Positions 117 through 44,166 of a stretch of 64,000 nt of DNA are shown piece after piece. Made by a program: the position numbers and the translations under genes. The stretch's first letter is position 1. Each line of letters starts with the position of its first letter. Under the pieces are notes generated by a model, which saw only the letters and a program-made list of their open reading frames with translations, did no database searches and was not told the DNA's origin. Source of the DNA: Clostridiales bacterium (GTDB lineage Bacteria > Bacillota > Clostridia > Peptostreptococcales > Anaerovoracaceae); assembly GCA_015058275.1 (NCBI GenBank), contig SVCQ01000002.1, positions 52,902 through 116,901 on the forward strand. The letters run 5' to 3'.

Positions 117-157
117 TTGCACTTTGTGAAAAACACCAAATAATCGACAAAAATTTG

Positions 158-186
158 TTGACATCATACACAAGGTTTGTTATAGT
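158..186 (+). promoter_or_regulatory. sigma-A type promoter of the met transporter operon
   Basis: TTGACA (158-163), 17-nt spacer, TATAGT (181-186). Confidence 0.6.
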
Positions 187-223
187 CACACATGAACTTA
201 TTCTATGAAAGGAGCACATTCAC

Positions 224-298
224 ATGACTAAAAGAATGATGATGGAAATGGGAATGATGGGCATGTGCATGTGCAGAGCCGATATTAGCATAGGATAG
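224..298 (+). CDS. 24-codon Met/Cys-rich leader ORF (MTKRMMMEMGMMGMCMCRADISIG)
   Basis: AAAGGAG at 208-214 lies 9 nt before ATG 224. There are 9 Met and 2 Cys in the first 17 codons, and the stop is TAG 296-298. The ORF sits between the promoter and an intrinsic terminator upstream of metN. It is too short for the ORF track. Confidence 0.55.
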   Translation: MTKRMMMEMGMMGMCMCRADISIG

Positions 299-345
299 GG
301 TCGTAACGAATCAAACCGAAACTATGAGTTTTCTCATGTTGCATG

Positions 346-378
346 GCGGGCAGGTCGTTAAGACCTGCCCGCTTTTTT
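346..378 (+). terminator. intrinsic terminator / attenuator in the metN leader
   Basis: 11-bp GC-rich stem GCGGGCAGGTC (346-356) / GACCTGCCCGC (362-372), 5-nt loop, TTTTTT at 373-378. It lies about 30 nt upstream of the metN start. Confidence 0.8.
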
Positions 379-409
379 ACACAATCCGTTTCACGAGAAA
401 GGAGCCGAA

Positions 410-2311: not shown

Positions 2312-3145
2312 ATGAAGAACATCAAAAGATTCAGCATTCTGGCACTCGTACTCGCACTCGCTCTCGGCGCACTTACAGCATGCGGCGGCGGAAGCGACAG
2401 CGGAGATGACAGCGCAGACAAGACTATCACTGTAGCAGCATCGCCTACACCTCATGCAGAGATCCTCGGATCGATCAGCGAAGCTCTCGCAGAAGAGGGA
2501 TGGACACTCGAAGTCAAGGAGTTCGAGGACTATGTACAGCCTAACGTAGCTACTACTGAGGGCGACGTCGATGCCAACTTCTTCCAGCACGTACCGTATC
2601 TCGATGAGTACAACGCTGAGAACGGCACTGAGCTCGTAGCAGTAGGCAACGTACACTATGAGGCAATGGGAGTATACAAGGGCTCCAAGGACAGCTTCGA
2701 TGCACTCGCAGACGGAGACAAGATCGCAGTTCCTAACGACACTACAAACGAGGCAAGAGCTCTGCAGCTGCTCGCAGCCAACGGAGTCATCACTCTCAAG
2801 GACGGCGTAGGACTCGAGGCTACAAAGACAGACATCGTAGACAATCCTAAGAACATCGAGGTGGTTGAGCTTGAGGCAGCTTCCATCCCTGGAGCACTTC
2901 AGGACGTAGCGCTCGGCGTTATCAATGCCAACTATGCTCTCGGAGCATCCCTGACAACTGACGATGCAGTAGCTTACGAGGCTGCTGACTCCGAGGCCGC
3001 TGAGACTTACGTAAACGTCATCGTAGTCAACAAGGGCAACGAGGAGAGCGAGAAGACAAAGGCTCTCGTAGCTGCTATCCAGACTGATGCCGTCAAGAAG
3101 TTCATCGAGGACAAGTACAACGGAGCGGTAATCGCCAAGTTCTAA
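2312..3145 (+). CDS. metQ: methionine-binding lipoprotein (MetQ/NlpA family)
   Basis: Signal peptide with lipobox LTAC, then an NlpA-family body (HAEILG..., DANFFQH, NYAL). Confidence 0.92.
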   Translation: MKNIKRFSILALVLALALGALTACGGGSDSGDDSADKTITVAASPTPHAEILGSISEALAEEGWTLEVKEFEDYVQPNVATTEGDVDANFFQHVPYLDEYNAENGTELVAVGNVHYEAMGVYKGSKDSFDALADGDKIAVPNDTTNEARALQLLAANGVITLKDGVGLEATKTDIVDNPKNIEVVELEAASIPGALQDVALGVINANYALGASLTTDDAVAYEAADSEAAETYVNVIVVNKGNEESEKTKALVAAIQTDAVKKFIEDKYNGAVIAKF

Positions 3146-4043: not shown

Positions 4044-7000
4044 ATGGACAACAATTTTGTAAAAGTCGGTAAATGGGGCGAGTGTCTCTGGGGCATCAAT
4101 GAGAACGGCGAGCTCTTTATCAACGAAGGCAGGGCAGAGAGCCTGGAGGACGGCTCGCCATGGGCGGAAGTTGCCTCATCGGTGGTCACGGCCAATACGA
4201 TAGGCACCGTCACTTTTCCTGACGGAGCTTCGCTTGCGGGCCTCTTCAAGGGCTGCAAGAACATGGCCAATGCGGATCTGAGCGGCTTCGTCACTGATAA
4301 CGTCAGGGACATGAGCTCGATGTTCGAAGGCTGCGCCAACCTGAAGGGACTCGACATCTCATCCTTTGATACACACCGCTGCTCCAACATGAAAAAGATG
4401 TTCAGCCAGTGCACCAAACTGAGCGAGATACTTCTCGGTCAGGAGTTCAGCACGTCAGGAGACGGCTCGACATCCTGCGACAAGCTCGCCATCAAGGAGT
4501 ACGGCAAGTACAGGAGAGGCAAGCCGATCGCAGTAGAGGGCTTCAAGGTCACCTACCACAGCAATCTCGGTGACGGCAGATCCGACGAGAGGAGAACTTC
4601 TCCGGGTATCAAATACATAATCGAACACCCTATGTTCAATGCCCCGAGCGACAGGGCTTCGTTCGTATCCTGGAATACCGACGCGGATGCCAAGGGCAGA
4701 TTCTATCCGCCGGGGAGATCGATCGAGGATCTCGATGAGGACCTCGAGCTTTATGCTGTCTGGGCATGGGCTCCGGTCATCAAAAAGCAACCGCATATCA
4801 GACCATTTACATTCGGCGAAAAGATCCCGTTCGAACTTCCGGAGATAGAGTCAAAGAATGACCCTGAGGTTACGGGATACCTCGAGATAAGCAAGACAGG
4901 CAAAGAGGGCACATGGCATGCCATCGACCACAACACAGTGCTGCCTGTAGCATTCAACGGATATCTGCTGAGACTCCACGCAGCCAACAGCGTCGGCGAG
5001 ACAGTATCCGATCCGGTCAAGCTCAACATCAAAAAGGCCACGATCGATGTCTCCGGCATACGCTGGGCAGAAGAAGACAACATGGTATATGACGGCACAC
5101 CTAAGGAAGTCCATATCGAGGGTCTGCCTGATTCCATCCAGCCGAAGTACGAAGGCAATGTAGCTACCAACGCAGGTACTTACACAGCCAGCTTTGCATT
5201 TGTCTTTGACCGCAACAACTTCAATGAGCCTATAGTCATCAGGGAGCACGAGTGGACCATCCGCAAGGCTACGCTGGATATGTCCGCAGTCCGCTGGGAT
5301 TATTCGGGTGCATTCACATACGACGGCAGCGTCAGAGAGGTCAAGCTCACAGGCCTGCCTGAGGGCGTTACCGCCATCTACGAAAACAACAGCGCTTCGG
5401 ATGCCGGCATCTACACCGCCACCGTTACGCTCAACTACGATTTCGAGAACTACGAGAAGCCTGCAGACATCGTCCCTTGCGTATGGGAGATCCGCAAGGC
5501 AGTAATCGATGCTTCGTCCATCCGCTGGTCCGGATACAGGGACTTCGTATACGACGGATCGCCTAAGTCGGTCAGGATAGTCAATCTGCCTGAGGATGCG
5601 GCCGTTGAGTATGACGGAGCTGATGAGACTCTGGCAGGCAAGTACCTCGCAAGAGCCAACTTCAAGGGCAATTACACCACCAACGCTCCTGCGGAGTACG
5701 AGTGGGAGATAGCCAAAAAGCACTACGACCTCAGCGGCACTCAGTGGTCGGAGGTCAGAGAGTTCTCATACGACGGACAGCCACACGGCATCGTGCTGAC
5801 CGGACTTCCGGAGCAGCTCGAGGTCAGGTATTCGGGCAACGTCGGCGTATCTGCCGGCAGATACACCGCAAGAGCGGTCTTCGTCAATCCGGATACCCAC
5901 AACTACGTCACGCCTGAGGATGCTACCATCCAGTGGCAGATCACCAAAAAGATCGTCGACATGTCCGGAGTACACTGGGATTACCAGGGACCTTTCACAT
6001 ACGACGGAGAGGCCAAGTCGGTCATGCTCAAGGGACTGCCTGAGGGCATCGGCGCTGACTACGAGAACTTCATGGCATTCGATGCGGGCGAGTACAATGC
6101 ACGCGCCATCCTCAGATACGACGAGGACAACCTCGAGGTCGCATGGCCTTCGGACTGCCAGTGGAGGATCAACAAGAGCAGGATCGATGTATCCGGTGTC
6201 TACTGGGATTACACCGATGCATTCACTTACAACGGCAATAAGCACGCAGTATACCTCGCGGGACTCCCTGAGGGACTGAGCGTAGACTATACGGACAACG
6301 TCAAGACCGAGACAGGCACTTACGTGGCAAGCGCCACACTGACCCCTATCGATGCGGCCAACTTTGAGGTGCCTGAGGTCAACGGCTGCGTATGGACGAT
6401 CAGGAAGGCCGACTGCGAGATCGAGGGTCTTGTATGGACAGACTGCAGCGGCTTCGTATATGACGGACGCGAAAAGACGGTCAGGATCGAGTCAGACCTC
6501 GGCGACATGATCAAGGTCGACTACGAGGACAACGTCGCTGTCAACGCCGGCAGATATTACAGTAAGGCCATCTTCACGCTCTTTGATGACTCCAACCTCA
6601 ACCCGCCTAAGCCGGCAGGTTATTCGTGGAGCATCGCAAAGGCCAGATACGACATGTCACAGGTCGTCTGGGATTACGAGAACGCCTTCACTTATGACGG
6701 AAGCGAGAAGTCCGTCAGGCTCCTCAACGTACCTGAAGGCATCATAGTCAGCTACAGGAACGCTTCGGCCAAGGATGCCGGAGACTACACTGCAGTGGCT
6801 CAGTTCGAGGTCCAGGACGAAAACAACTACGAGACAAGCATCCCTGACATGGTGCTCGACTGGAGCATCCGCAAGGCTGTATTCGACATGTCCGGCGTCA
6901 AGTGGCAGGGCAGCAAAGAGTACGCATACGACGGCGAGATCAAGGGAGAGGACCTCAGACTCGTCGGACTGCCTGACGGCATCACACCTGAGTACATCGA

Positions 7001-10000
7001 CAGCACTGCTGTCGTAGCAGGCGAGTACACCGCCAAGGCCAACCTCATCTACGACGAAAAGAACTACGAGAAGCCTGAAGTCGCAGGCTGCCACTGGGTG
7101 ATCGCAAAATCCCCGCTCGATCTCTCGACAGTCAGATGGGATTACGAGGAACCGTTCGTATACGACGGATCCGAAAAGAGAGTCTCTGTCAGCGAGCCGC
7201 CTAAGGGCTCGAGGATCGAGTACAGCAACGCATGTGCTTCACAGGCCGGTACTTATGTAGCGGCAGCGGACATCATCCCTGATGATGACAACAACCGCAT
7301 CAAGGGCAGACTCGACAACCTCACATGGAGGATCGAGCGCGGCCACTACGACATGAGCCATGCTCACTGGGATTATGAGAAGCCTTTCGTTTATGACGGC
7401 AGCGAGAACCGCGTCGTGATCAAGGGCCTGCCTGAGGGCGTGACCCCTTACTACAAAGGCAATACCGCAACCAACGCCGGCCACTATACCGCTTCGGTAA
7501 GCTTTACTGTGGCTGACGAACACAACTACAACGTACCGGAGATGGAGGATCTCGAGTGGACCATCAACAAGGCAGACTACGACATGTCGTCCGCCGCATG
7601 GGATTACGAAGGCGAGATCACATATACCGGCAACGTGCACGAGGTAATGCTCAGAGGGCTGCCTGACGGAGTAAGAGCTATCTACAGCGGCAATACAGCT
7701 GCCAACACGGGCTCCTATGAGGCGTCCGCAGAGCTCATCCCGTACGATCCTGACAACTTCAACAAGCCACACGTAGACAACTGCAGCTGGAAGATCGTCA
7801 AGGCCGACTACGAGATGTCCGCAGTCAGATGGGATTACACAGCCAGCAAGCGCTTCAACGGCAGGGAGCAGTGCGTACTGCTCGAGCATCTCCCTAACGG
7901 AGTGACTGCCGTATACGAAGGCAACGAGGCTGTCAATGTCGGTTCGTACACCGCAAGTGCACAGCTTATGGTGGCCGATCCTGACAACTACAACATCCCT
8001 TCGGTAAGCGACTGCGACTGGGAGATCACGCGTGCGGAGTACGACCTCAGCAAGGTCGAGTGGGATTACGAGGACGGCAAGTTCGTCTTTGACGGCGGCG
8101 TCAAGACAGTGACCCTCGACAATATCCCGAGAGGACTCGAGGTTTCGTATATCGGCAATTCCGCTTCGATCGCCGGTGACTATCTCGCTACGGCCAACTT
8201 CACATCCGTAGACAACAACTACGAGACTCCGGCTTCGATCTCCATCCCATGGAGAATCGAGCAGGCTGTATACGACATGAGAAGGGTCGAGTGGGATTAC
8301 ACCGAGTGCTTCACTTACGACGGACTGCCTAAGAGAGTTGAGCTCAGAGGACTGCCTGTGGGCATCAACGTAGACTATACAGACAATTCGGCGATCGACA
8401 CCGGCGTATACACAGCCACCGCCAGATTCAGCACCGAGAGCGACAACTACAGCACTCCGGATGAGATGACATGCACATGGGAGATCGGCAAGGCCGATGT
8501 GGATATCCGCAAGGTCGCATGGGATTACTCGCAGAGCTTCGTATATGACGGTACAGACAGGAAAGTCGAGCTCAGGAACGTACCTGATCAGCTCGAGGTC
8601 ACTTACAGCGGCAATGTCGCAAGCGAGGCGGGCGAGTATCTCGCACACGCGACCCTGACACCGCTCAGACCTGACAACTACAACACGCCTATCGTCAGAG
8701 ACTGCGTATGGACCATCGAAAAGGCCAACTACGACATGTCCGATGCGAGATGGGACGGCGAGTTCGAGTACACATATGACGGACGCGAAAAGGGCGTCAG
8801 CATCACAGGACTGCCTGAGGGCGTTACTCCTGTATATCACGACAATGTTGCTACAGAGGCCGGTTCATACGTCGCTTCTGCCACATTCAAGTGCGACACA
8901 GCCAACTACAACGTGCCTGAGATCGGAGTCTGCAGATGGAAGATCAGGAAGGCCGTATACGACATGTCCAATGCCGCATGGTATGCAGAGGACAGGATCG
9001 TCTATGACGGCACCGAGAAGTCCATCAAGCTGAGAGGCTATCCTGAGGGGCTTACTCCATACTACAAGGGCAACACCGCGGTCAATGCCGGTGAGTACGA
9101 GGCTTCGGTAGAGTTCGGATATGATGAGAACAACTACTACAAGCCGACATTCGGCGGATGCAAGTGGCATATAGCTCCTGCAGACATCAACGTCGACCTC
9201 TCGAAGGTACGCTGGACTTACGATGAGCCGTTCGTATACGACGGAGACGTCAAGTCCGTAGTGATTGCAGAGACTTCGGATGACGTAGGCTTCATGGACA
9301 AGCTCCGCGGACGCAGCCCTGAGATGAGGCTCACGGGCATACCTGAGGGCTTCGAGGTAGTATACAGCAACAACTCGGCAAGCCAGGTAGGCGTATACTA
9401 CGCAGGCGCCAAGCTGATCAGCATCAACGACACGGAGAACTTCAACGAGTACGACCTGCCTAAGTTCAGATGGGAGATCGTAAAGGCCAAGGTCGACATG
9501 TCTCACGTAAGATGGAACTACGAGGATGCCTTCGTCTATGACGGCACCGAAAAGTCCGTAGAGCTGATCGGACTCCCGGAGACTGTCGATGTAACATACA
9601 CCGACAACAGCGGAGTGGACGCAGGCGATCACGAGGCACTGGCCATGATCGAGGTCAAGGATCCTCACAACTACGAGACACCGAGACCTGTCAGCGGATG
9701 CTGGTGGCAGATCAGCAAGGCCAGCTACGACATGTCGCAGGTACGCTGGACCTACGACGACGATATCGTCTACAACGGCAAGGAGAAGACCGTCAGAGTC
9801 ACAGGCCTGCCTGAGGGTGTAAGAATAGAGAACTACAGAGGCAATAAGGGCATCGAGGCCGGCAGCTACACGGCAGAGGCCATCCTCAGATACCAGAACA
9901 AAGACAACTTCGAGGAGCCAGTGATCCCGGCTCTCAAGTGGAGGATACGCAAAAAGAAGATCGACATCTCGGAGATCGCATGGAACTACGACGAGACTAC

Positions 10001-10433
10001 AGGCTTTGTATATGACGACAAGCCTAAGACCGTCACACTCACAGGAGTGCCTGATGACGTCGAGATCGTATATGTCGACAACAGCAAGATCAATGCCGGC
10101 ACATACACCGCAAGGGCCAGGACGATCTACGACACAAGGAACTGCGAGATCGACAAGATCCCTGAACTGAGATGGAGGATCGAAAAGGCGACTTACGACA
10201 CATCCGGGGCTTACTGGACCTACGAGAAGCCGTTCAGATATGACGGTAACGAGAAGAGCATAGTCCTCAAGGGAGTGCCTGATTCCATCGCTGTCAGATA
10301 CAGGGACAACAAGGCTTCGGCCATCGGTACATACACAGCCAAGGCATATCTGACATATGACAGCGACAACTATGAGGCTCCTGAGATCGAGACGACTATC
10401 GACTGGGCTATCATAGGGAAGGAAGTCGAATAG
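4044..10433 (+). CDS. giant repeat protein: DUF285/BspA-like LRR + Listeria-Bacteroides-type repeat + 23 tandem MBG (YDG-type) repeats
   Basis: The N-terminus carries MFxGCxxL / DxSxFDT motifs. One FVSWNTDADAKGRFYPPG...LELYAVWA unit follows. After that, the unit YDMSxVxWDY..FxYDGxEKxVxLxGLPEGV..xYxxNxAxNAGxYxA...D..NY..P....CxWxIxKA is repeated 23 times, counted by eye. GGAAGGGA lies about 9 nt upstream of the ATG. Confidence 0.9.
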   Translation: MDNNFVKVGKWGECLWGINENGELFINEGRAESLEDGSPWAEVASSVVTANTIGTVTFPDGASLAGLFKGCKNMANADLSGFVTDNVRDMSSMFEGCANLKGLDISSFDTHRCSNMKKMFSQCTKLSEILLGQEFSTSGDGSTSCDKLAIKEYGKYRRGKPIAVEGFKVTYHSNLGDGRSDERRTSPGIKYIIEHPMFNAPSDRASFVSWNTDADAKGRFYPPGRSIEDLDEDLELYAVWAWAPVIKKQPHIRPFTFGEKIPFELPEIESKNDPEVTGYLEISKTGKEGTWHAIDHNTVLPVAFNGYLLRLHAANSVGETVSDPVKLNIKKATIDVSGIRWAEEDNMVYDGTPKEVHIEGLPDSIQPKYEGNVATNAGTYTASFAFVFDRNNFNEPIVIREHEWTIRKATLDMSAVRWDYSGAFTYDGSVREVKLTGLPEGVTAIYENNSASDAGIYTATVTLNYDFENYEKPADIVPCVWEIRKAVIDASSIRWSGYRDFVYDGSPKSVRIVNLPEDAAVEYDGADETLAGKYLARANFKGNYTTNAPAEYEWEIAKKHYDLSGTQWSEVREFSYDGQPHGIVLTGLPEQLEVRYSGNVGVSAGRYTARAVFVNPDTHNYVTPEDATIQWQITKKIVDMSGVHWDYQGPFTYDGEAKSVMLKGLPEGIGADYENFMAFDAGEYNARAILRYDEDNLEVAWPSDCQWRINKSRIDVSGVYWDYTDAFTYNGNKHAVYLAGLPEGLSVDYTDNVKTETGTYVASATLTPIDAANFEVPEVNGCVWTIRKADCEIEGLVWTDCSGFVYDGREKTVRIESDLGDMIKVDYEDNVAVNAGRYYSKAIFTLFDDSNLNPPKPAGYSWSIAKARYDMSQVVWDYENAFTYDGSEKSVRLLNVPEGIIVSYRNASAKDAGDYTAVAQFEVQDENNYETSIPDMVLDWSIRKAVFDMSGVKWQGSKEYAYDGEIKGEDLRLVGLPDGITPEYIDSTAVVAGEYTAKANLIYDEKNYEKPEVAGCHWVIAKSPLDLSTVRWDYEEPFVYDGSEKRVSVSEPPKGSRIEYSNACASQAGTYVAAADIIPDDDNNRIKGRLDNLTWRIERGHYDMSHAHWDYEKPFVYDGSENRVVIKGLPEGVTPYYKGNTATNAGHYTASVSFTVADEHNYNVPEMEDLEWTINKADYDMSSAAWDYEGEITYTGNVHEVMLRGLPDGVRAIYSGNTAANTGSYEASAELIPYDPDNFNKPHVDNCSWKIVKADYEMSAVRWDYTASKRFNGREQCVLLEHLPNGVTAVYEGNEAVNVGSYTASAQLMVADPDNYNIPSVSDCDWEITRAEYDLSKVEWDYEDGKFVFDGGVKTVTLDNIPRGLEVSYIGNSASIAGDYLATANFTSVDNNYETPASISIPWRIEQAVYDMRRVEWDYTECFTYDGLPKRVELRGLPVGINVDYTDNSAIDTGVYTATARFSTESDNYSTPDEMTCTWEIGKADVDIRKVAWDYSQSFVYDGTDRKVELRNVPDQLEVTYSGNVASEAGEYLAHATLTPLRPDNYNTPIVRDCVWTIEKANYDMSDARWDGEFEYTYDGREKGVSITGLPEGVTPVYHDNVATEAGSYVASATFKCDTANYNVPEIGVCRWKIRKAVYDMSNAAWYAEDRIVYDGTEKSIKLRGYPEGLTPYYKGNTAVNAGEYEASVEFGYDENNYYKPTFGGCKWHIAPADINVDLSKVRWTYDEPFVYDGDVKSVVIAETSDDVGFMDKLRGRSPEMRLTGIPEGFEVVYSNNSASQVGVYYAGAKLISINDTENFNEYDLPKFRWEIVKAKVDMSHVRWNYEDAFVYDGTEKSVELIGLPETVDVTYTDNSGVDAGDHEALAMIEVKDPHNYETPRPVSGCWWQISKASYDMSQVRWTYDDDIVYNGKEKTVRVTGLPEGVRIENYRGNKGIEAGSYTAEAILRYQNKDNFEEPVIPALKWRIRKKKIDISEIAWNYDETTGFVYDDKPKTVTLTGVPDDVEIVYVDNSKINAGTYTARARTIYDTRNCEIDKIPELRWRIEKATYDTSGAYWTYEKPFRYDGNEKSIVLKGVPDSIAVRYRDNKASAIGTYTAKAYLTYDSDNYEAPEIETTIDWAIIGKEVE
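5034..10430 (+). repeat. 23 tandem ~234-nt coding repeats (diverged) inside the giant CDS
   Basis: Unit boundaries recur at I(K/R/A)KA...D(M/V/L)S..(R/H/V)W. The copies are diverged at nucleotide level. Confidence 0.85.
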
Positions 10434-38680: not shown

Positions 38681-38756
38681 CTCACTAATTCGCCTTTTGT
38701 TTTGTATTTGGTGCACAAATTAGACCGTTAAATTTGAGTTTTTTCACAAAAAAGTG

Positions 38757-38785
38757 TTGACACACAATCTTCACAATGCTATCAT
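38757..38785 (+). promoter_or_regulatory. sigma-A type promoter of the liv-like operon
   Basis: TTGACA (38757-38762), 17-nt spacer, TATCAT (38780-38785). Confidence 0.6.
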
Positions 38786-38824
38786 CCGAAATGTGCAGAG
38801 ATACTGCACAGAAAGGAAGACCGA

Positions 38825-38911
38825 ATGTACTTTACAGTTAGCATTATCGTCATTAGCATTATCAGCGTCCTTGGAGTCGTAAGACTCGTAGAGGACGGAT
38901 TTATGCTGTAG
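38825..38911 (+). CDS. 28-codon Ile/Val/Leu-rich mini-ORF (MYFTVSIIVISIISVLGVVRLVEDGFML), candidate leader peptide
   Basis: GAAAGGAAG at 38811-38819 lies 5 nt before ATG 38825. There are 5 Ile, 6 Val and 3 Leu in 28 codons. It sits between the promoter and the BCAA-binding protein gene. Confidence 0.4.
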   Translation: MYFTVSIIVISIISVLGVVRLVEDGFML

Positions 38912-39096
38912 GGCGATGGAGTACATCAGGTAGTAACTTGAAGCTTGGGAGCCCGCAGCAATGCGGGCTTATAACATGCTTTAATAATCGGGGCATGCTG
39001 AATGCCCGGGCTAAGGCAATCAGGCAACTGATCAACTATCACTCAGTCAGAAATCACTAATTCTGAAACCAAATGTATGAGAAAGGGAGATTTAAA

Positions 39097-40263
39097 ATGA
39101 AGAAGACATGGAACAAAGTCGTAGTTGTAGCTCTCTCCTGCATGATGGCATTCGCGCTCGCAGCATGCGGCGGTGGAAGCGGAGATGCAGGAGATGACGT
39201 AATCAAACTCGGCAACACAGGCCCTCTGACAGGACCGGCTGCTATCTACGGCCAGGCTGTAGACAACGGCGGCAAGCTCGCTGTTGAAGAGATCAACGCA
39301 GCTAATCCGGACGGACTCCAGCTCGCATGGCAGGCTGAGGACGACGAGGCTGACGGCGAAAAGGCTGTTAACGCTTACAACAAGCTGATGGATGACGGAA
39401 TGGACGTCTTCATCGGTTCCACAACTTCCGGTTCCTGCGTAGCAGCATCCGAGAAGGCATTCGAAGACAGAGTATTCGAGCTCACTCCATCCGCTTCCCA
39501 GGTAGCAGTTACCGAGGGTAAGGACAATGTATTCCAGCTCTGCTTCTCCGACCCTAACCAGGGAGTTGCCGCGGCTGATTACATCAACGCAAACATGGCT
39601 GACAAGACAGTCGGCGTCATCTACAACAACGCAAGTGACTACTCTGCAGGTATCTATGACAAGTTCAAGGCAGAGATGGAAGCTGCAGGCAAGGAGATCG
39701 CAGCTGTAGAGGCATTCGCAGACGATGCCAACACTGATTTCCAGGCTCAGATCAACAGCATGAAGAACGCAGGCGTTGACCTCGTGTTCCTGCCGATCTA
39801 CTACACACCGGCTTCCAACATCCTGATCCAGGCAGACAAGATCGGTTATGCTCCTACATTCTTCGGAGTAGACGGCATGGACGGAATCCTCACACTCGAG
39901 GGATTCGATACAAAGCTGGCTGAGGGCGTAATGCTCCTGACACCGTTCATCGCAACTGCTGAGGATGAAGCTACTCAGAACTTCGTTAAGGCTTACAAGG
40001 ACGCTTACGGCGAGGAGCCTAACCAGTTCGCAGCTGACGCATATGACTGCGTATATGCAGTATACGATGCTCTCAACAAGGCAGGCGTAGAGGCATCCGC
40101 ATCCCACGAGGAGATCTGCGATGCACTCGTCGGACAGTTCGCAGGCGACTTCAAGTACAGCGGCGTTACAGGCGCTGACATGGAGTGGAACGAGGCAGGC
40201 GAAGTCAACAAGACTCCGAACGCCATGGTCATCGAGAACGGCGTATACGTACCGGTAAAGTAA
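39097..40263 (+). CDS. livJ: branched-chain amino acid ABC transporter substrate-binding lipoprotein
   Basis: Lipobox LAAC and a type-I PBP of Leu/Ile/Val-binding type (IKLGNTGPLTGPAAIYG). ATG 39097 with AGGGAG upstream is preferred over 39073. Confidence 0.88.
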   Translation: MKKTWNKVVVVALSCMMAFALAACGGGSGDAGDDVIKLGNTGPLTGPAAIYGQAVDNGGKLAVEEINAANPDGLQLAWQAEDDEADGEKAVNAYNKLMDDGMDVFIGSTTSGSCVAASEKAFEDRVFELTPSASQVAVTEGKDNVFQLCFSDPNQGVAAADYINANMADKTVGVIYNNASDYSAGIYDKFKAEMEAAGKEIAAVEAFADDANTDFQAQINSMKNAGVDLVFLPIYYTPASNILIQADKIGYAPTFFGVDGMDGILTLEGFDTKLAEGVMLLTPFIATAEDEATQNFVKAYKDAYGEEPNQFAADAYDCVYAVYDALNKAGVEASASHEEICDALVGQFAGDFKYSGVTGADMEWNEAGEVNKTPNAMVIENGVYVPVK

Positions 40264-40368
40264 TACACTGACTGACTTAAGTGTATAGTTGTTGGCCAAG
40301 GGGTGCTGCATGCATGTGCGGCACCCCAAAGCCGCATTATTACACAGTTAAGAAAGAAAGAAGAAACC

Positions 40369-41253
40369 ATGAATTTTTTGACCAATCTTATTTCCGGACT
40401 CAGTCTGGGGAGTGTGTATGCGATCATCGCGCTTGGATATACCATGGTATATGGTATTTCCAAGATGCTTAACTTCGCACATGGTGACGTTATTATGATC
40501 GGCGGCTACATGTCATTCGTAATGACACAGTACGTCGGCATGAACGGATGGCTGGCACTTCTGGTTGCGATCGTTGTCTGCACTGTCCTCGGTATACTCA
40601 TCGAGAGACTGGCATACAGACCGCTCAGGGGCACCGGCTCTCTCGCTGTTCTGATCACGGCGATCGGCGTGTCATATTTCCTCCAGAACATGGCTCTTTT
40701 GATCTGGGGAGCCAACCCTAAGATGTTCACGAGTCTGTTCAAAGGGATGTCGCCTATCCATGCGGCAGGCGGCCAGCTCACGATCACTCCTGAGTCGCTG
40801 TTCACTATCGCAGCCAATATCGTGATCATGATCGTCCTGACTCTGTTCGTCAGCAAGACCAAGGCAGGCAAAGCCATGCGCGCGGTCTCCGAGGACAACG
40901 GAGCGGCCCAGCTGATGGGTATCAACGTCAACCAGTCCATATCTCTTACATTCGCCATTGGTTCGGGTCTTGCGGCGGTCGCCGGAGTGCTGATGTGCTC
41001 CGCCTATCCGGTGCTGATGCCGACAACAGGCGCCATGCCGGGTATCAAGGCATTCACGGCTGCGGTATTCGGAGGCATCGGCTCCATCCCGGGAGCGATG
41101 ATCGGCGGCCTTATCCTTGGCATTATCGAGATATTCTCGCGTGCATACATTTCGACAGAGCTCTCTGACGCCATCGTGTTTGCATGCCTCATCATAGTAC
41201 TGCTGGTCAAGCCGACAGGTCTGCTCGGCAAGAAGGTCAGCGAGAAAGTGTAG
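40369..41253 (+). CDS. livH: branched-chain amino acid ABC transporter permease
   Basis: MNFLTNLISGLSLGSVYAIIALGYTMVYG is a typical LivH N-terminus. The ORF-track extension from 40303 is rejected. Confidence 0.9.
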   Translation: MNFLTNLISGLSLGSVYAIIALGYTMVYGISKMLNFAHGDVIMIGGYMSFVMTQYVGMNGWLALLVAIVVCTVLGILIERLAYRPLRGTGSLAVLITAIGVSYFLQNMALLIWGANPKMFTSLFKGMSPIHAAGGQLTITPESLFTIAANIVIMIVLTLFVSKTKAGKAMRAVSEDNGAAQLMGINVNQSISLTFAIGSGLAAVAGVLMCSAYPVLMPTTGAMPGIKAFTAAVFGGIGSIPGAMIGGLILGIIEIFSRAYISTELSDAIVFACLIIVLLVKPTGLLGKKVSEKV

Positions 41254-41260
41254 GTGTGTC

Positions 41261-42382
41261 ATGGCAGAGAGATTACTTAAAAACATCAGTACAAGGGGAC
41301 TCAAAAATGCCGTCAAGGGCAGTGAGTACCGCAGGGAGGCGGCAATTTCATACGCCATCCTTATCATAGGATTCATAGTACTGCAGGCCGGAGCGGCCGC
41401 AGGCATGATCGGACACAACCTTCAGGGACAGTTCGTTCCTATCTGCTGTTACATATCGCTGGCTGTATCCCTCAACCTCGTAGTAGGCATCTCGGGCGAG
41501 CTCTCGCTCGGACATGCGGGATTCATGGCTGTCGGAGCCTTCAGCGGCATTCTCATGTCGCGCATCATGGGCTTCCACATGTCCTTCGAGCCTGCGATCA
41601 TCATCACATCGATGCTCTTTGCGGCATTCATGGCGGCTGTAGCCGGATTCATCATCGGCATCCCGATCCTGGGTCTCAGGGGAGACTATCTGGCTATCGT
41701 TACGCTGGCGTTCGGAGAGATCATCCGTAACATAATGAACGTGCTCTACTTTGGTCTTGATGACGGCAAGCTGAGATTCGCGTTCAACCACACCATCGAC
41801 GGTCTCGACAACAACGAGCGTATCATCACGGGCGCTATCGGTGCGACGGGTACAAAGACAATGGCAAGTTTCACATGGGGACTGCTGCTGTGCCTGTTCA
41901 CGGTATTCGTAGTACTCAATATCAAGAACTCCAAGCAGGGCAGAGCCATCATGTCCATCAGGGACAACCGTATCGCAGCCGAGTCCATCGGCCTCGACGT
42001 AAGGAAGTACAAGCTCATGGCCTTTGTCATAAGCGCGGCTCTCGCCGGCATGGCAGGCTGCCTGTTCGGCCTCAACTACAGCACGCTCGTGCCGCTCAAG
42101 TTCAACTTCAACACATCGGTGCTGATCCTCGTATTCGTTGTACTCGGCGGAGTAGGCAATATCTGGGGCGGTATCATCGCCGCGGCTGTTCTTACCATAC
42201 TGCCTGAGACATTCAGACAGTTCGCCGACTACAGGATGCTGACTTATGCGGTAGTGCTGATCCTGGTAATGATCTTTACCTACAACCCGGCTATCAATGC
42301 AAGGGTCAAGTCTGTAGTCAATAAGATCAAGATCAAAAAACCGGGCGGTAAGGACAAGAAGACCGGAAAGGAGGCGGCGTAA
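41261..42382 (+). CDS. livM: branched-chain amino acid ABC transporter permease
   Basis: LivM-type polytopic permease (LNLVVGISGELSLGHAGFMAVGAF). Confidence 0.9.
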   Translation: MAERLLKNISTRGLKNAVKGSEYRREAAISYAILIIGFIVLQAGAAAGMIGHNLQGQFVPICCYISLAVSLNLVVGISGELSLGHAGFMAVGAFSGILMSRIMGFHMSFEPAIIITSMLFAAFMAAVAGFIIGIPILGLRGDYLAIVTLAFGEIIRNIMNVLYFGLDDGKLRFAFNHTIDGLDNNERIITGAIGATGTKTMASFTWGLLLCLFTVFVVLNIKNSKQGRAIMSIRDNRIAAESIGLDVRKYKLMAFVISAALAGMAGCLFGLNYSTLVPLKFNFNTSVLILVFVVLGGVGNIWGGIIAAAVLTILPETFRQFADYRMLTYAVVLILVMIFTYNPAINARVKSVVNKIKIKKPGGKDKKTGKEAA

Positions 42383-43456
42383 ATGGCTAAAAACAAAGAA
42401 GAACTGCGCGATCTCAACGTCTCCGAGACCGGTCACACATACGAGAACAGACAGGAGATCTACTACAACGACAACGTAGGCGGCAGAGCCGTATTCGTTG
42501 ACTCCAAGGAGCAGTACAGCCCGGACGAGCCGTACAATGAGGACGTCTACATCCCTGAGAAGGACAGAGACAAGGCTCCTATACTCGAGGTCAAGAACCT
42601 CGGTATCGACTTCGGCGGTCTGACTGCCGTAGACAACTTCAACCTGACTCTGGGACGCACCGAGATCGGCGGACTCATCGGTCCTAACGGTGCCGGCAAG
42701 ACCACAATCTTTAACATGCTCACCAAGGTGTACGAGCCTACAAGAGGAGAGATATTCTTTGACGGCAGATCCACCAAGGGCATGAAGACCGTGGACATCA
42801 ACAAGGCCGGCATGGCGCGTACATTCCAGAACATCAGGCTCTTTGACAAGCTGACCGTAGAGGAGAACATCAAAGTAGCTCTCCACCACACCACGGACTA
42901 CAGCCTGGTTGACGGCATGTTCCATACGCCTAAGTACAGGCACGAGGAATACCGCATCCGCAAGGAGGCGATGAAGTACCTCAAGATCTTCGGCATGACC
43001 AAGACGGCCAACTACACGGCCGGATCGCTCCCTTACGGAGCTCAGAGAAGGCTCGAGATCATGAGAGCGCTGGCTACAAAGCCAAAACTCCTGCTGCTGG
43101 ACGAGCCGGCGGCGGGCATGAACCCATCCGAGACATCGGAACTCATGGAGACGATCAGAGAGATCCGCGACAGATTCCAGATCGCGATATTCCTGATCGA
43201 GCACGACATGAACCTCGTCATGAACATCTGCGAGGGCATCGTGGTACTCAACTACGGCCGTGTCATCGCAAAGGGGCAGCCTGAGGACATCCAGAAGAAC
43301 CCTAAGGTAATCGAGGCTTACCTCGGCAAGAGCAGAGGCAAGATGGAAGAGGAAGAGAAGAACGAAGACATCGAAGAGGCTCTCAAAAAGGGCAAGCTCG
43401 AATCATCCGCTTCCGGAAAGCCGGATACAGGATCATCCGGGAAGGAGGTAGAGTAA
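42383..43456 (+). CDS. livG: branched-chain amino acid ABC transporter ATP-binding protein with N- and C-terminal extensions
   Basis: Walker A GPNGAGKTT, LPYGAQRRLEI, LLLDEPAAGMN. There is a ~65-aa acidic/Tyr-rich N-extension and a ~45-aa Glu/Lys-rich tail. Confidence 0.88.
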   Translation: MAKNKEELRDLNVSETGHTYENRQEIYYNDNVGGRAVFVDSKEQYSPDEPYNEDVYIPEKDRDKAPILEVKNLGIDFGGLTAVDNFNLTLGRTEIGGLIGPNGAGKTTIFNMLTKVYEPTRGEIFFDGRSTKGMKTVDINKAGMARTFQNIRLFDKLTVEENIKVALHHTTDYSLVDGMFHTPKYRHEEYRIRKEAMKYLKIFGMTKTANYTAGSLPYGAQRRLEIMRALATKPKLLLLDEPAAGMNPSETSELMETIREIRDRFQIAIFLIEHDMNLVMNICEGIVVLNYGRVIAKGQPEDIQKNPKVIEAYLGKSRGKMEEEEKNEDIEEALKKGKLESSASGKPDTGSSGKEVE

Positions 43457-44166
43457 TGGGCACAGTACTGACAGTTAAGAACATTAACGTCTATTACGGA
43501 GCCATTCATGCCATCAAAGGCATCTCCTTCGACGTAAACAGAGGCGAGATAGTCACGCTTATCGGAGCCAACGGAGCCGGCAAGTCGACTACGCTTCACA
43601 CCATCTCCGGACTTCTCAGGAGCAAGACAGGCGACATCGAATTCCTCGAGGAGTCGATCGCTCATACGCCTGCTCACAAGATCGTATCCAAGGGCATCTC
43701 CCACGTACCTGAAGGCCGCAGGATATTCCAGGGCATGACGGTACAGGAGAACCTCCAGATGGGTGCTTTCGTAACCAAGCAGGACAGGATCGCTCACAAC
43801 CTCGAGTACGTGTACGATCAGTTCCCGAGGCTCAAGGAGAGGACAAGCCAGATCGCAGGCACTCTCTCCGGAGGCGAGCAGCAGATGCTGGCCATGGGCA
43901 GGGCTCTTATGTCCGACCCTGAGCTGCTGATGCTCGACGAGCCTTCGATGGGACTCGCGCCTATCCTGGTAGACCAGATCTTCGAGATCATCAAAAACCT
44001 CAACAAGGCGGGCACTACCATACTGCTGGTAGAGCAGAACGCCCAGATGGCTCTTTCGGTAGCCGACAGAGCGTACGTAATAGAGACGGGCAAGATCTCG
44101 CTCTCCGGCACAGGAGAGGAGCTCGCAAAGTCCGACGAAGTACGCAAGGCATACCTCGGAGGCTAA
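43456..44166 (+). CDS. livF: branched-chain amino acid ABC transporter ATP-binding protein
   Basis: Walker A GANGAGKST, LSGGEQQMLAMGRAL, LMLDEPSMGLAP. The start overlaps the livG stop (TAATG). Confidence 0.92.
   Translation: MGTVLTVKNINVYYGAIHAIKGISFDVNRGEIVTLIGANGAGKSTTLHTISGLLRSKTGDIEFLEESIAHTPAHKIVSKGISHVPEGRRIFQGMTVQENLQMGAFVTKQDRIAHNLEYVYDQFPRLKERTSQIAGTLSGGEQQMLAMGRALMSDPELLMLDEPSMGLAPILVDQIFEIIKNLNKAGTTILLVEQNAQMALSVADRAYVIETGKISLSGTGEELAKSDEVRKAYLGG

Follow-up and report, generated by a model that had tools for sequence, protein, structure and literature searches.

What controls a methionine importer when the usual regulatory RNA is missing from its leader? The metNIQ operon discussed here comes from a rumen bacterium of the class Clostridia and lies in a window of 64,000 nucleotides, the whole stretch of DNA that was analysed. 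In Firmicutes, S-box riboswitches, Met T-boxes and Met-box regulators are the normal explanation for the control of methionine genes, and the SAM-I (S-box) riboswitch is the usual controller of metNPQ and metNIQ. In their place a ribosome-mediated attenuator is predicted at this locus. It would sense charged elongator Met-tRNA, possibly Cys-tRNA as well, and control the metNIQ importer operon; we give this reading a probability of about 0.8. Methionine shortage most likely switches the operon on.

At gathering thresholds Rfam gave no match over the whole window, including SAM-I to SAM-VI, the SAM/SAH riboswitches and the T-box, and a permissive search (E <= 10) over 100-460 returned only noise, with E values of at least 0.28. 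As a positive control, the SAM riboswitch RF00162 was found upstream of metN in two related loci (L028 and L029) at 90-94 bits. The claim of the sequence-only reading that neither an S-box/SAM riboswitch nor a T-box is present here was borne out. Among the 40 metN loci that were searched with Rfam, only 2 have a SAM riboswitch. The Rfam leader-peptide families (Trp_leader, His_leader, Leu_leader, Thr_leader and others) also gave no match to the metN leader, which works like these families and is homologous to no curated one. Searches of seven leader peptides against NCBIfam and six against Pfam found no protein family. Since no Rfam, Pfam or NCBIfam model describes it, the leader is currently invisible to annotation pipelines. 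Literature searches turned up no Met-rich leader peptide attenuator besides the predicted metL of S. lividans.

All features of the leader lie on the plus strand. A sigma-70-type promoter (158-186; TTGACA-17-TATAGT) with 11/12 matches and an extended TG probably starts transcription at about 192-194. Equivalent promoters are found at the same distance in related loci, and a conserved motif is present upstream of the promoter. The Shine-Dalgarno sequence GAAAGGAG (207-214) is located 9 nt before the ATG at 224, a spacing of 9-10 nt that is kept in 13/13 aligned leaders. It precedes a leader ORF of 24 codons (224-298), MTKRMMMEMGMMGMCMCRADISIG, that ends with a UAG stop at 296-298 and is probably translated. 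The regulatory codon run (236-274) has 8 ATG among codons 5-16, at codons 5, 6, 7, 9, 11, 12, 14 and 16, together with TGC at codons 15 and 17, and it is near-invariant across 13 species. Methionine is probably the signal. With a threshold of at least 6 ATG per 12 stop-free codons, the Met run is the sole site on both strands of the 64-kb window, and a rough calculation puts the chance of at least 8 ATG at ~2e-12 per 12-codon window. The run is not a product of chance. A minus-strand ATG-rich stretch near 41580 (5/12 codons) lies opposite a liv permease gene, in antisense orientation, and was set aside as spurious. The non-Met codons of the run are invariant as well, synonymous sites included, which points to extra RNA-level constraints outside the attenuator model.

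The leader ORF is followed by an intrinsic terminator (345-378) with a 12-bp stem (345-356/362-373), a loop at 357-361 and six T residues at 373-378. The stem contains 9 G-C pairs and has an energy of -26.2 kcal/mol (z = -7.5), and the base of the stem shows compensatory changes across species. The TTG start of metN at 410 follows 31 nt after the end of the T run. The metN gene (410-1462) encodes the ABC ATPase with ABC_tran and NIL domains, and its Shine-Dalgarno sequence, GGAG (401-404), is located outside the terminator hairpin. It is followed by metI (1462-2124), encoding the BPD_transp_1 permease, and metQ (2312-3145), encoding an NlpA-family substrate-binding lipoprotein. The promoter, Shine-Dalgarno sequence, ORF, terminator and metNIQ genes are all where the sequence-only reading had placed them. 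An antibiotic-sensing leader of the ermCL/bmrB type was rejected, as the NIL domain and the NlpA lipoprotein identify the operon as a MetNIQ importer. The U-tract after the hairpin is interrupted or weaker in several relatives, and the 3' arm of the terminator is wholly missing from one (L008). Conservation extends to the loop sequence of the terminator, GTTA(A/G), something not usually seen in a plain terminator.

An alternative pairing between GGGTCGTAAC (298-307) and GTTAAGACCT (357-366) had been proposed from the letters alone, with the caution that the helix is weak. The sequences are as written and the pairing is there, but the helix is not weak. The ~9 bp described are the outer part of a longer antiterminator, which continues as 304-318 with 347-360. 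In full, 298-318 (GGGTC-G-TAACGA-A-TC-AAA-CCG) forms 16 pairs with 347-366, a strand that runs from the terminator 5' arm through the loop into the 3' arm, of which it takes the first 5 nt; the energy is -21.3 kcal/mol. The extended antiterminator thereby keeps the entire 5' arm from pairing in the terminator. It encloses a small hairpin (323-338), TATGAG-TTTT-CTCATA-like, that is found at this position in 13/13 leaders and varies in sequence between subgroups. Folding of 285-366 gives the antiterminator as the minimum-energy structure (-21.3 kcal/mol, z = -2.85), and it remains the lowest-energy structure of the growing transcript up to the point where ~5 bases of the terminator 3' arm have emerged. 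The same architecture is the minimum-energy fold in 13/13 Anaerovoracaceae leaders when these are folded unaligned (-18.6 to -24.5 kcal/mol), and 94% of the cells are paired across the 13 leaders. Compensatory changes were seen in two of them: G308-C356 is replaced by A-U in L014, and L015 has TCTAAC:GTTAGA. These two single-sequence changes are not significant against shuffles; the covariation is thin because the region is nearly invariant.

The position of the ORF relative to the antiterminator is also kept. In 13/13 leaders the stop codon is 2-15 nt and the last Met codon 27-31 nt before the base of the antiterminator, which is the geometry that classical attenuation needs. Analogous antiterminators are present at or near the stop codon in five other loci (L031, L064, L075, L079 and L065). 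Two further pairings were considered and dropped: GGGCATGT (259-266) with the terminator 3' arm, a site that a stalled ribosome would cover, and CATAG (289-293) with CTATG (322-326), which has only 5 bp and leaves the terminator untouched.

Minimum-energy folding of the full-length leader gave P1/P2 (see below) and the terminator only, without the antiterminator, so that at this locus the equilibrium fold of the entire leader is not informative. The antiterminator surfaced only by duplex scanning and by folding nascent RNA truncated at 366. Stepwise folding forms it when the nascent RNA ends at 358-366. When 283-311 was masked, as a mimic of a terminating ribosome, stepwise folding gave the terminator directly and no antiterminator. 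At equilibrium the terminator always wins once at least 7 stem pairs can form, so the switch must be kinetic; the choice between antiterminator and terminator is probably made as the RNA is synthesized. The mutually exclusive structures that the sequence-only reading had proposed to seek by folding are thus found, and they are conserved. The trp/his-style attenuation by Met codons that it put forward is well supported by the conserved ORF, the lack of a riboswitch or T-box, the exclusive antiterminator and terminator, and the right codon spacing.

The following sequence of events is proposed. Transcription would start near 193, and a ribosome would load at the leader Shine-Dalgarno sequence and translate the 24-codon ORF. 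When methionine is plentiful, the ribosome would pass the eight Met codons and reach the UAG at 296-298. Given the general size of a ribosome footprint, it would then cover 298 to ~310 and thereby mask the antiterminator 5' strand. With the terminator 5' arm left free, the 345-373 hairpin and its U-tract would form and transcription would stop 31 nt before metN. When charged Met-tRNA is scarce, the ribosome would stall within codons 5-16 (236-271), with 27 nt or more between it and the antiterminator downstream, and 298-318 would pair with 347-366 as the latter emerges. With the whole 5' arm and the loop of the terminator and the first five 3'-arm bases locked in the antiterminator as the polymerase reaches the U-tract, the result would be read-through into metNIQ. 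Such an attenuator implies effective coupling of transcription and translation at the metN leader. Work on B. subtilis has led to the view that transcription in this phylum often outruns the ribosomes.

The sequence-only reading had suggested looking for the Met run and the stop position in metN orthologues, and both are conserved. Of 80 related loci, 24 have a Met-rich leader ORF in front of metN, counting at least 5 ATG in 12 codons no more than 420 nt upstream of metN (32 kb searched). The remaining 962 kb of these loci contain 12 such ATG clusters, which corresponds to a ~60-fold enrichment in front of metN. Thus ~30% of the 80 metN loci fetched carry a Met-rich leader ORF in place of the usual controllers. 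The spacing of the stop codon is kept in the 13 leaders described above. The ORF itself is conserved before metN in L001-L015, L084 and L085, and diverged versions are present in L016, L017, L021, L022, L025, L031, L049, L065 and L079. The diverged leaders, from other Clostridia, have kept a strong Shine-Dalgarno sequence, the in-frame Met run and a downstream terminator and differ in nucleotide sequence. The leader carriers are gut and rumen Clostridia labelled Anaerovoracaceae/Mogibacterium, Lachnobacterium, Faecalibacterium/Oscillospiraceae and Christensenella. A Met/Cys leader and a terminator are also located before metY on a high-GC metagenomic contig (L141).

Two further helices, P1 and P2, enclose the ORF. 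In the RNAalifold consensus, the 5' strand of P1 (194-207; core CTTATTCTATG, 197-207) is the extreme 5' end of the transcript and its 3' strand (289-302; CATAGGATAGGGTC) includes the stop codon and shares ~5 nt with the antiterminator base. P2 pairs GCACAT-T-CACATG (214-226), which contains the leader start codon, with CATGTG-C-ATGTGC (262-274), the Met-Cys-Met-Cys codons. Both helices are conserved, and together they bring the 5'UTR, Shine-Dalgarno sequence and start codon into pairing with the Met-Cys codons and the region around the stop. Changes in P1 are wobble-compatible in L007, L009 and L010, and L015 has CTACGC:GCGTAG. In P2, 98.7% of the cells are paired, with one compensatory change from A-U to G-C (L014) and G-U-compatible changes in L003, L011, L012 and L013. 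What do these helices do? They could serve as an anti-antiterminator, or they could shut off leader translation once the first ribosome has passed. Stepwise folding predicts that an untranslated leader also forms the antiterminator, and P1/P2 is therefore no obvious protector of the trp-style 1:2 type.

Could the conserved elements be explained without tRNA charging as the cue? An arrest peptide similar to TnaC or SpeFL would be stalled by its own nascent Met/Cys sequence, especially M-C-M-C; the trigger would be a small molecule, for example SAM or free methionine, or else a redox or metal cue. The recurrence of M-C-M-C(R/T)(A/F) in lineages of differing nucleotide sequence, with both TGC and TGT codons (L021, L022 and L025), in the high-GC L141 and in the Streptomyces metL (PMC8079986), is in line with this explanation. 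However, a response to abundant methionine would have the wrong sign with the observed stop/antiterminator geometry, because a stall inside the ORF frees the antiterminator and turns the operon on. Eight cognate codons are the hallmark of sensors of tRNA charging, Cys is wholly missing from some leaders (L065 and L079), and the complementarity of the Met-Cys codons to the start region of the leader in P2 gives an RNA-level reason for their conservation. We consider an arrest peptide unlikely.

The RNA itself, rather than its translation, might also be what matters. It could be an unknown riboswitch or a protein-binding site in which the ATG-rich ORF is incidental or secondary. Such a structured RNA would account for the very high nucleotide conservation, which extends to synonymous positions of the non-Met codons, for the P1/P2 helices enclosing the ORF and for the conserved motif upstream of the promoter. 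What it does not account for is that the diverged leaders keep the ORF, Shine-Dalgarno sequence and Met run and not the nucleotide sequence, or that the stop codon, although it shifts, keeps its position with respect to the antiterminator. No conserved pairing is seen in the apical 30 nt with the Met codons, and no Rfam model matches, which makes this explanation very unlikely. The remaining alternative is a functional Met/Cys-rich micropeptide, for example a metal-binding one, with the hairpin acting as a leaky terminator that separates the small ORF from metNIQ. Its MxM and CxC motifs do look like Cu(I)-binding motifs. On the other hand, linkage of the ORF to metN, or to metY in L141, is tight in different lineages, the length and C-terminus of the peptide vary, and no protein family matches it. 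The terminator is moreover overlapped by a conserved antiterminator, and a micropeptide is extremely improbable.

The tRNA-sensing attenuator can be compared with several known systems. The attenuators of Gammaproteobacteria (trpL, hisL, leuL, thrL, pheL and ilvL) also have a short ORF with cognate codons led by a Shine-Dalgarno sequence, and in both cases a terminator is paired with a mutually exclusive antiterminator whose 5' strand is masked by a ribosome at the stop codon. The metN leader differs from them in its predicted sensing of methionine (with two Cys codons) and in having an uptake ABC transporter instead of a biosynthetic operon as its target, and it has no sequence or covariance-model similarity to them. 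In place of a trp-style 1:2 hairpin there is P1/P2, in which the last regulatory codons and the stop region pair with the 5'UTR, Shine-Dalgarno sequence and start codon, and which shares only ~5 nt with the antiterminator. The SAM-I riboswitch occupies the same regulatory position and presumably serves the same physiological purpose, but it senses SAM directly through a structured aptamer, needs no translation and is absent at the metN of the window.

The Anaerovoracaceae belong to the same order as the Peptostreptococcaceae. Predicted His-leader attenuators are on record for the B. cereus group, Erysipelotrichales and the Peptostreptococcaceae, C. difficile among them (PMC9413887, PMC2965389). 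In S. aureus, the branched-chain amino acid biosynthesis genes are reported to have a Leu-rich attenuator peptide (PMC5794164). These His and Leu leaders share leader-peptide attenuation with the metN leader but involve other amino acids and operons, and no Met-specific leader is reported in the three papers (PMC9413887, PMC2965389, PMC5794164). The suggestion that the locus represents an under-described mode for the phylum is thus right for the methionine specificity and the transporter target and not for leader attenuators as such, which were already known there. The metN leader is new in these two respects within a known type of attenuator. Outside the phylum, a metL leader (…ARCMCRRMCAF) has been predicted upstream of metNIQ in S. 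lividans TK24 (PMC8079986). It has a Met/Cys motif before the same transporter operon; however, it is an actinobacterial, leaderless ORF with only ~3 Met, and no typical intrinsic terminator was found (PMC8079986). That prediction comes from RNA-seq of one genome, without comparative or mechanistic analysis (PMC8079986). In mycobacteria, stalling on the consecutive Cys codons of polycysteine leaderless sORFs unmasks a downstream ribosome-binding site (10.1101/834739). Here too an upstream short ORF with sulfur-amino-acid codons controls a downstream operon through ribosome stalling (10.1101/834739). In contrast to these sORFs, the metN leader is led by a Shine-Dalgarno sequence after a 5'UTR of ~30 nt and is dominated by Met, with two non-adjacent Cys codons, and its output is an intrinsic terminator and not translational control.

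For methionine, leader-peptide attenuation has hardly been described before. The metN leader would add to the set of amino acids sensed by leader peptides the only one that is also required for the start of translation. Methionine starvation would limit initiator fMet-tRNA as well, a complication for any Met-sensing leader. The conserved leader could be used as a covariance or peptide model for annotation, or as a compact Met-responsive switch.

Does the leader belong to a larger group? It is possible, though doubtful, that it is a member of a cross-phylum class of M-C-M-C sulfur-amino-acid leaders that read the charging of Met-tRNA and Cys-tRNA jointly and whose wiring may differ from that of trp. 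If so, this class would control both the uptake of methionine (metNIQ in Clostridia and Streptomyces) and its synthesis (metY in L141). With such a different wiring, only a ribosome that has actually arrived at the stop codon would prevent the antiterminator from forming. A shortage of initiator fMet-tRNA, for instance, would leave the leader untranslated and the operon ON by default, which would resolve the paradox of methionine being sensed by a device that cannot start without it. When metagenomes were scanned for ATGGGNATGTGYATGTGY (M-G-M-C-M-C), TG/CA microsatellite-like repeats dominated the results, and the only informative matches were L084 and L085, from the same family as the host of the window, and L141. 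In another match, L132, the motif is followed by a serine-hydrolase-like gene.

The regulatory elements that the sequence-only reading had listed upstream of metNIQ were each located in positions 1-720 of the window, all on the forward strand. At 158-186 a promoter-like site (TTGACA-17 nt-TATAGT plus extended TG, 11 of 12 matches) precedes a Shine-Dalgarno (SD) sequence, GAAAGGAG (207-214), which lies 9 nt upstream of the ATG at 224 that opens the Met leader ORF (224-298, product MTKRMMMEMGMMGMCMCRADISIG). Codons 5, 6, 7, 9, 11, 12, 14 and 16 of this ORF are ATG and codons 15 and 17 are TGC. The run of Met codons is far beyond chance; in both strands and all frames of the 64-kb window it is the sole site with at least 6 ATG per 12 stop-free codons. 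The terminator hairpin (345-373) has 12 bp including 9 G-C pairs, is followed by T6 and has a folding energy of -26.2 kcal/mol (z = -7.5 versus shuffles), and 31 nt separate the end of the T run from the TTG-initiated metN ORF. Pfam identifies metN (410-1462) as an ABC ATPase with a NIL domain, metI (1462-2124) as a BPD_transp_1 permease and metQ (2312-3145) as an NlpA-family lipoprotein. The metI-metQ spacer holds a small repeat element (2126-2236) in which TGAGATCCTTCGCT…CAGGATGACAG occurs twice in direct orientation together with an inverted copy, GAAGGATCTCA; the element resembles the short palindromic intergenic repeats that yield spurious 'SLRMT/ILSEAKDL' ORFs.

The absence of an S-box/SAM riboswitch and of a T-box, which had been noted by eye, is borne out by the Rfam 15 search, in which the whole window gave zero matches at gathering thresholds. 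At E <= 10, positions 100-460 gave unrelated noise alone, the top match (E = 0.28) being the terminator hairpin, which resembles a Pseudomonas sRNA terminator. The search has power in the metN context, since it found SAM-I riboswitches (90 and 94 bits) directly 5' of metN in two Cellulosilyticum genomes (loci L028 and L029), and no known riboswitch or T-box was found by Rfam in the other 38 metN loci scanned. The Met leader also had no match among the curated leader families of Rfam, and its peptide belongs to no family in NCBIfam or Pfam. Functionally, the model that we propose would make it an attenuator of the trp/his type.

Related loci were retrieved by anchoring on MetN, with one genome per GTDB species, giving 80 loci. 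The closest, with 73-90% MetN identity, come from MAGs of rumen and gut origin that carry the labels Mogibacterium, Anaerovoracaceae or Clostridiales, which points to an Anaerovoracaceae-like member of the Clostridia as the source of the window. The leader ORF is present upstream of metN in all 15 of the closest loci and its core, MMMEMGMMGMCMC, is nearly unaltered (L002 and L006 are truncated by contig ends). Nine more distant Clostridia loci carry differing Met-rich leaders, each with a strong SD and a downstream terminator: …NMMMPMGMCMCTF… in L016, …MMSMCMRSMMQMCSF… in L017 (labelled Lachnobacterium), …MMNMMDMCMGMCMCTFTDKF… in L021, L022 and L025, …MMDMMMMCMTMGMR… in L031, …MMMNMMMNMMMPMCMCRMSMF… in L049 (labelled Faecalibacterium), and the leaders of L065 and L079 (the latter labelled Christensenella). 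By a criterion of at least 5 ATG in 12 codons, a Met cluster occurs in the 420 nt before metN (32 kb altogether) in 24 of the 80 loci. Only 12 such clusters occur in both strands of the remaining 962 kb, a roughly 60-fold enrichment near metN. The chief reason to believe that the ORF is read as codons is that ORF, SD and Met run persist despite nucleotide divergence. The non-Met codons within the run (GAA, GGA and GGC, window 245-262) show amino-acid replacements in a few of 13 species and zero synonymous changes, while the MetN proteins of these species differ by 10-27%. These codons lie outside all predicted helices; the constraint on them appears to act at the RNA or codon level, and the proposed mechanism leaves it without explanation. 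Another leader type, …F/AMRM(S/F)M(C/R)ASFLSCCLCCAA, with fewer Met codons and a Cys-rich tail, lies about 130-250 nt upstream of metN in L064, L075, L077 and L080; in this type the antiterminator that opposes the downstream terminator takes its 5' strand from the codons of the tail.

The antiterminator of the window leader is absent when the full length is folded at equilibrium. It was found by duplex scanning of the terminator against upstream sequence and by folding of the nascent RNA, and it pairs 298-302 with 362-366, 304-309 with 355-360, 311-312 with 353-354 and 316-318 with 347-349, enclosing a small hairpin (323-338). Folding of 285-366 gives this structure as the energy minimum (-21.3 kcal/mol, z = -2.85), and none of 200 shuffles was equally stable. 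The weak helix of about 9 bp proposed earlier (298-307 with 357-366) is present but is only the outer part; the inner part sequesters the whole 5' arm of the terminator. All 13 complete leaders, folded without alignment, give the same architecture (-18.6 to -24.5 kcal/mol), and in the alignment 94% of cells in the outer 11 pairs are paired, versus 11-42% in slid registers. Two compensatory changes were seen: L014 replaces G308-C356 by A-U, and L015 has U-A in place of C-G. With so little variation in the region, covariation does not reach significance against shuffles. The terminator loop GTTA(A/G) is conserved, which is unusual in a plain terminator and would fit a pairing role. Distant leaders (L031, L064, L075, L079, L065 and L017) fold into antiterminators as well, with the 5' strand located at the leader stop codon or immediately upstream of it. 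In several relatives the U-tract is interrupted. L008 (2815-3017) keeps the complete leader ORF, both upstream helices (P1 and P2) and the antiterminator 5' strand, and its sequence passes from the terminator loop (…GGGCAGGTCGTTAG) directly to the metN start, so that the terminator 3' arm and the spacer are absent; this gap may be either a natural deletion or an assembly artefact. L007 (2911-3000) and L006 (40-133) have a second, decayed copy of the leader between terminator and metN, ending about 20 nt upstream of the metN start. The copy in L007, MMMELRMMDMCMCAPK, lacks an SD and that in L006 is frameshifted; both are probably remnants of tandem duplication.

The spacing of these elements bears on how a ribosome would act. 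Both the last Met codon and the stop codon lie upstream of the antiterminator base in each of the 13 leaders, the former by 27-31 nt and the latter, which is found at four different positions, by 2-15 nt. Since a ribosome shields some 12-15 nt past its A-site codon, one stalled on any Met codon would leave the antiterminator 5' strand free, whereas one on the stop codon would cover the antiterminator base, in the window up to about 310. Stepwise folding of RNA that has emerged as far as 358-366 gives the antiterminator as the lowest-energy structure; if 283-311 is masked, the terminator forms directly instead. From the point where at least 7 pairs of the terminator can form, it is always the more stable structure, so kinetics must decide between the folds, as they do in classical attenuators. 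The antiterminator 3' strand stops five bases into the 3' arm of the terminator, about the amount that has emerged from the polymerase when it stands on the U-tract. The elements, their conservation, the mutual exclusivity of the two folds and the spacing both support and sharpen the trp/his-style attenuation first suggested from the sequence, and we consider classical ribosome-mediated attenuation keyed to Met-tRNA charging likely (probability about 0.8). From these features we infer translation of the ORF, a kinetic choice of fold and a response to methionine. An antiterminator that also formed in untranslated RNA would make ON the default state; one may speculate that this would suit a methionine sensor, since initiation itself needs Met-tRNAfMet.

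The role of the P1 and P2 helices is less easily assigned. The RNAalifold consensus of the 13 complete Anaerovoracaceae leaders has three helices, P1, P2 and the terminator, with standard pairs in 95% of cells versus 25-54% in slid registers, and none of 500 column shuffles matches the observed percentage paired or covariation score. P1 pairs the transcript 5' end (194/197-207) with the stop-codon region (289-302) and in L015 is CTACGC:GCGTAG. In P2, GCACAT-T-CACATG (214-226), which includes the start codon, is paired with the Met-Cys-Met-Cys codons, CATGTG-C-ATGTGC (262-274); this helix shows one complete compensatory change (A-U to G-C, in L014) that also converts a Cys codon to Arg, and several G-U-compatible changes (L003, L011, L012, L013). 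The two helices overlap the antiterminator by about 5 nt only and in stepwise folds coexist with 14-16 of its pairs even without a ribosome, so they are not a clear 1:2 protector of the trp kind. They sequester the leader's own start codon and adjoin the SD, and diverged leaders have a like design in which codons past MCMC (ACTTTC…, TTTCCTC…) are anti-SD sequences. Possible roles are an anti-antiterminator destabilised by any ribosome within the loop, a means of confining leader translation to the first ribosome, the co-transcriptional one, which would spare methionine as well, or a pause hairpin.

Why does the run contain Cys codons? They may report Cys-tRNA charging, making the leader a combined sulfur-amino-acid sensor, or AUGUGC may be present as the complement of GCACAU in the start region. 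A real role for Cys is supported by the recurrence of M-C-M-C-like motifs in the Streptomyces lividans metL leader (…ARCMCRRMCAF; PMC8079986) and in a high-GC metagenome contig, JACZCU010264329.1 (L141, 69-330). In the latter a strong terminator (GCCCGCCG…CGGCGGGCTTTTT) stands between a leader ORF, MSYASSARATAAHISMMCMGMCMCMR, and a downstream O-acetylhomoserine sulfhydrylase (TIGR01326, 691 bits), placing a Met/Cys leader before a methionine biosynthesis gene in an unrelated organism. The absence of Cys from the L065 and L079 leaders counts against such a role. The more far-reaching readings, a cross-phylum Met/Cys leader class, dual sensing and a fail-safe ON default, are possible but less likely than not.

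Leader-peptide attenuators already have precedents in Firmicutes. His leaders have been predicted in the B. cereus group (PMC2965389) and, elsewhere, both in Erysipelotrichales and in Peptostreptococcaceae such as C. difficile (PMC9413887), and S. aureus is reported to use a Leu-rich attenuator peptide for branched-chain amino acid synthesis (PMC5794164). Mycobacterial polycysteine leaderless ORFs likewise sense sulfur amino acids through short ORFs, but act on translation (10.1101/834739). For methionine, full-text literature searches yielded only S. lividans metL, predicted upstream of metNIQ (PMC8079986); subscription journals may hold an earlier description. The mechanism is thus known, and what is new is the amino-acid specificity for methionine and the transporter target. 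The Met leader is conserved across several Clostridia lineages yet missing from current annotation resources.

The second case that the sequence-only reading had placed at 38825 was also located, with its promoter, SD and leader ORF in 38757-39098. The promoter, TTGACA-17-TATCAT (38757-38785), has 11 of 12 matches plus TG, and the SD-led ORF (38825-38911) encodes 28 codons, MYFTVSIIVISIISVLGVVRLVEDGFML, rich in Ile, Val and Leu. Its RNA (38792-39075) is highly structured (z = -6.8); the start region pairs with the region after the stop, as P1 and P2 do in the Met leader, and hairpins with poor U-tracts lie downstream of the ORF. By its N-terminal sequence the following gene looks like a LivK-type binding protein, and four further ORFs follow it (39073-44166). 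Overall, this appears to be a transporter operon preceded by a branched-chain amino acid leader. The motif TTTGTGAAAAA has exactly two copies in the 64-kb window, at 121-140 (+) and 38740-38750 (-), with 0.23 expected even with one mismatch, and each lies immediately ahead of the -35 box in one of the two leader-peptide promoters. Related genomes retain a longer form, ACTTTGTGAAAAACA(A/C)CAAA, upstream of the promoter of the metN leader. The motif may be a shared transcription-factor site, which would add a second layer of control; it has a weak resemblance to a CodY box. Elsewhere in the window, a 2129-aa ORF (4044-10433) consists of an N-terminal domain and about 20 tandem modules of about 90 aa with the pattern …W(D/T)Y…F(T/V)YDG…K…V…GLP…Y…N…AG(T/S)Y…A…, and presumably encodes a giant repetitive surface protein.
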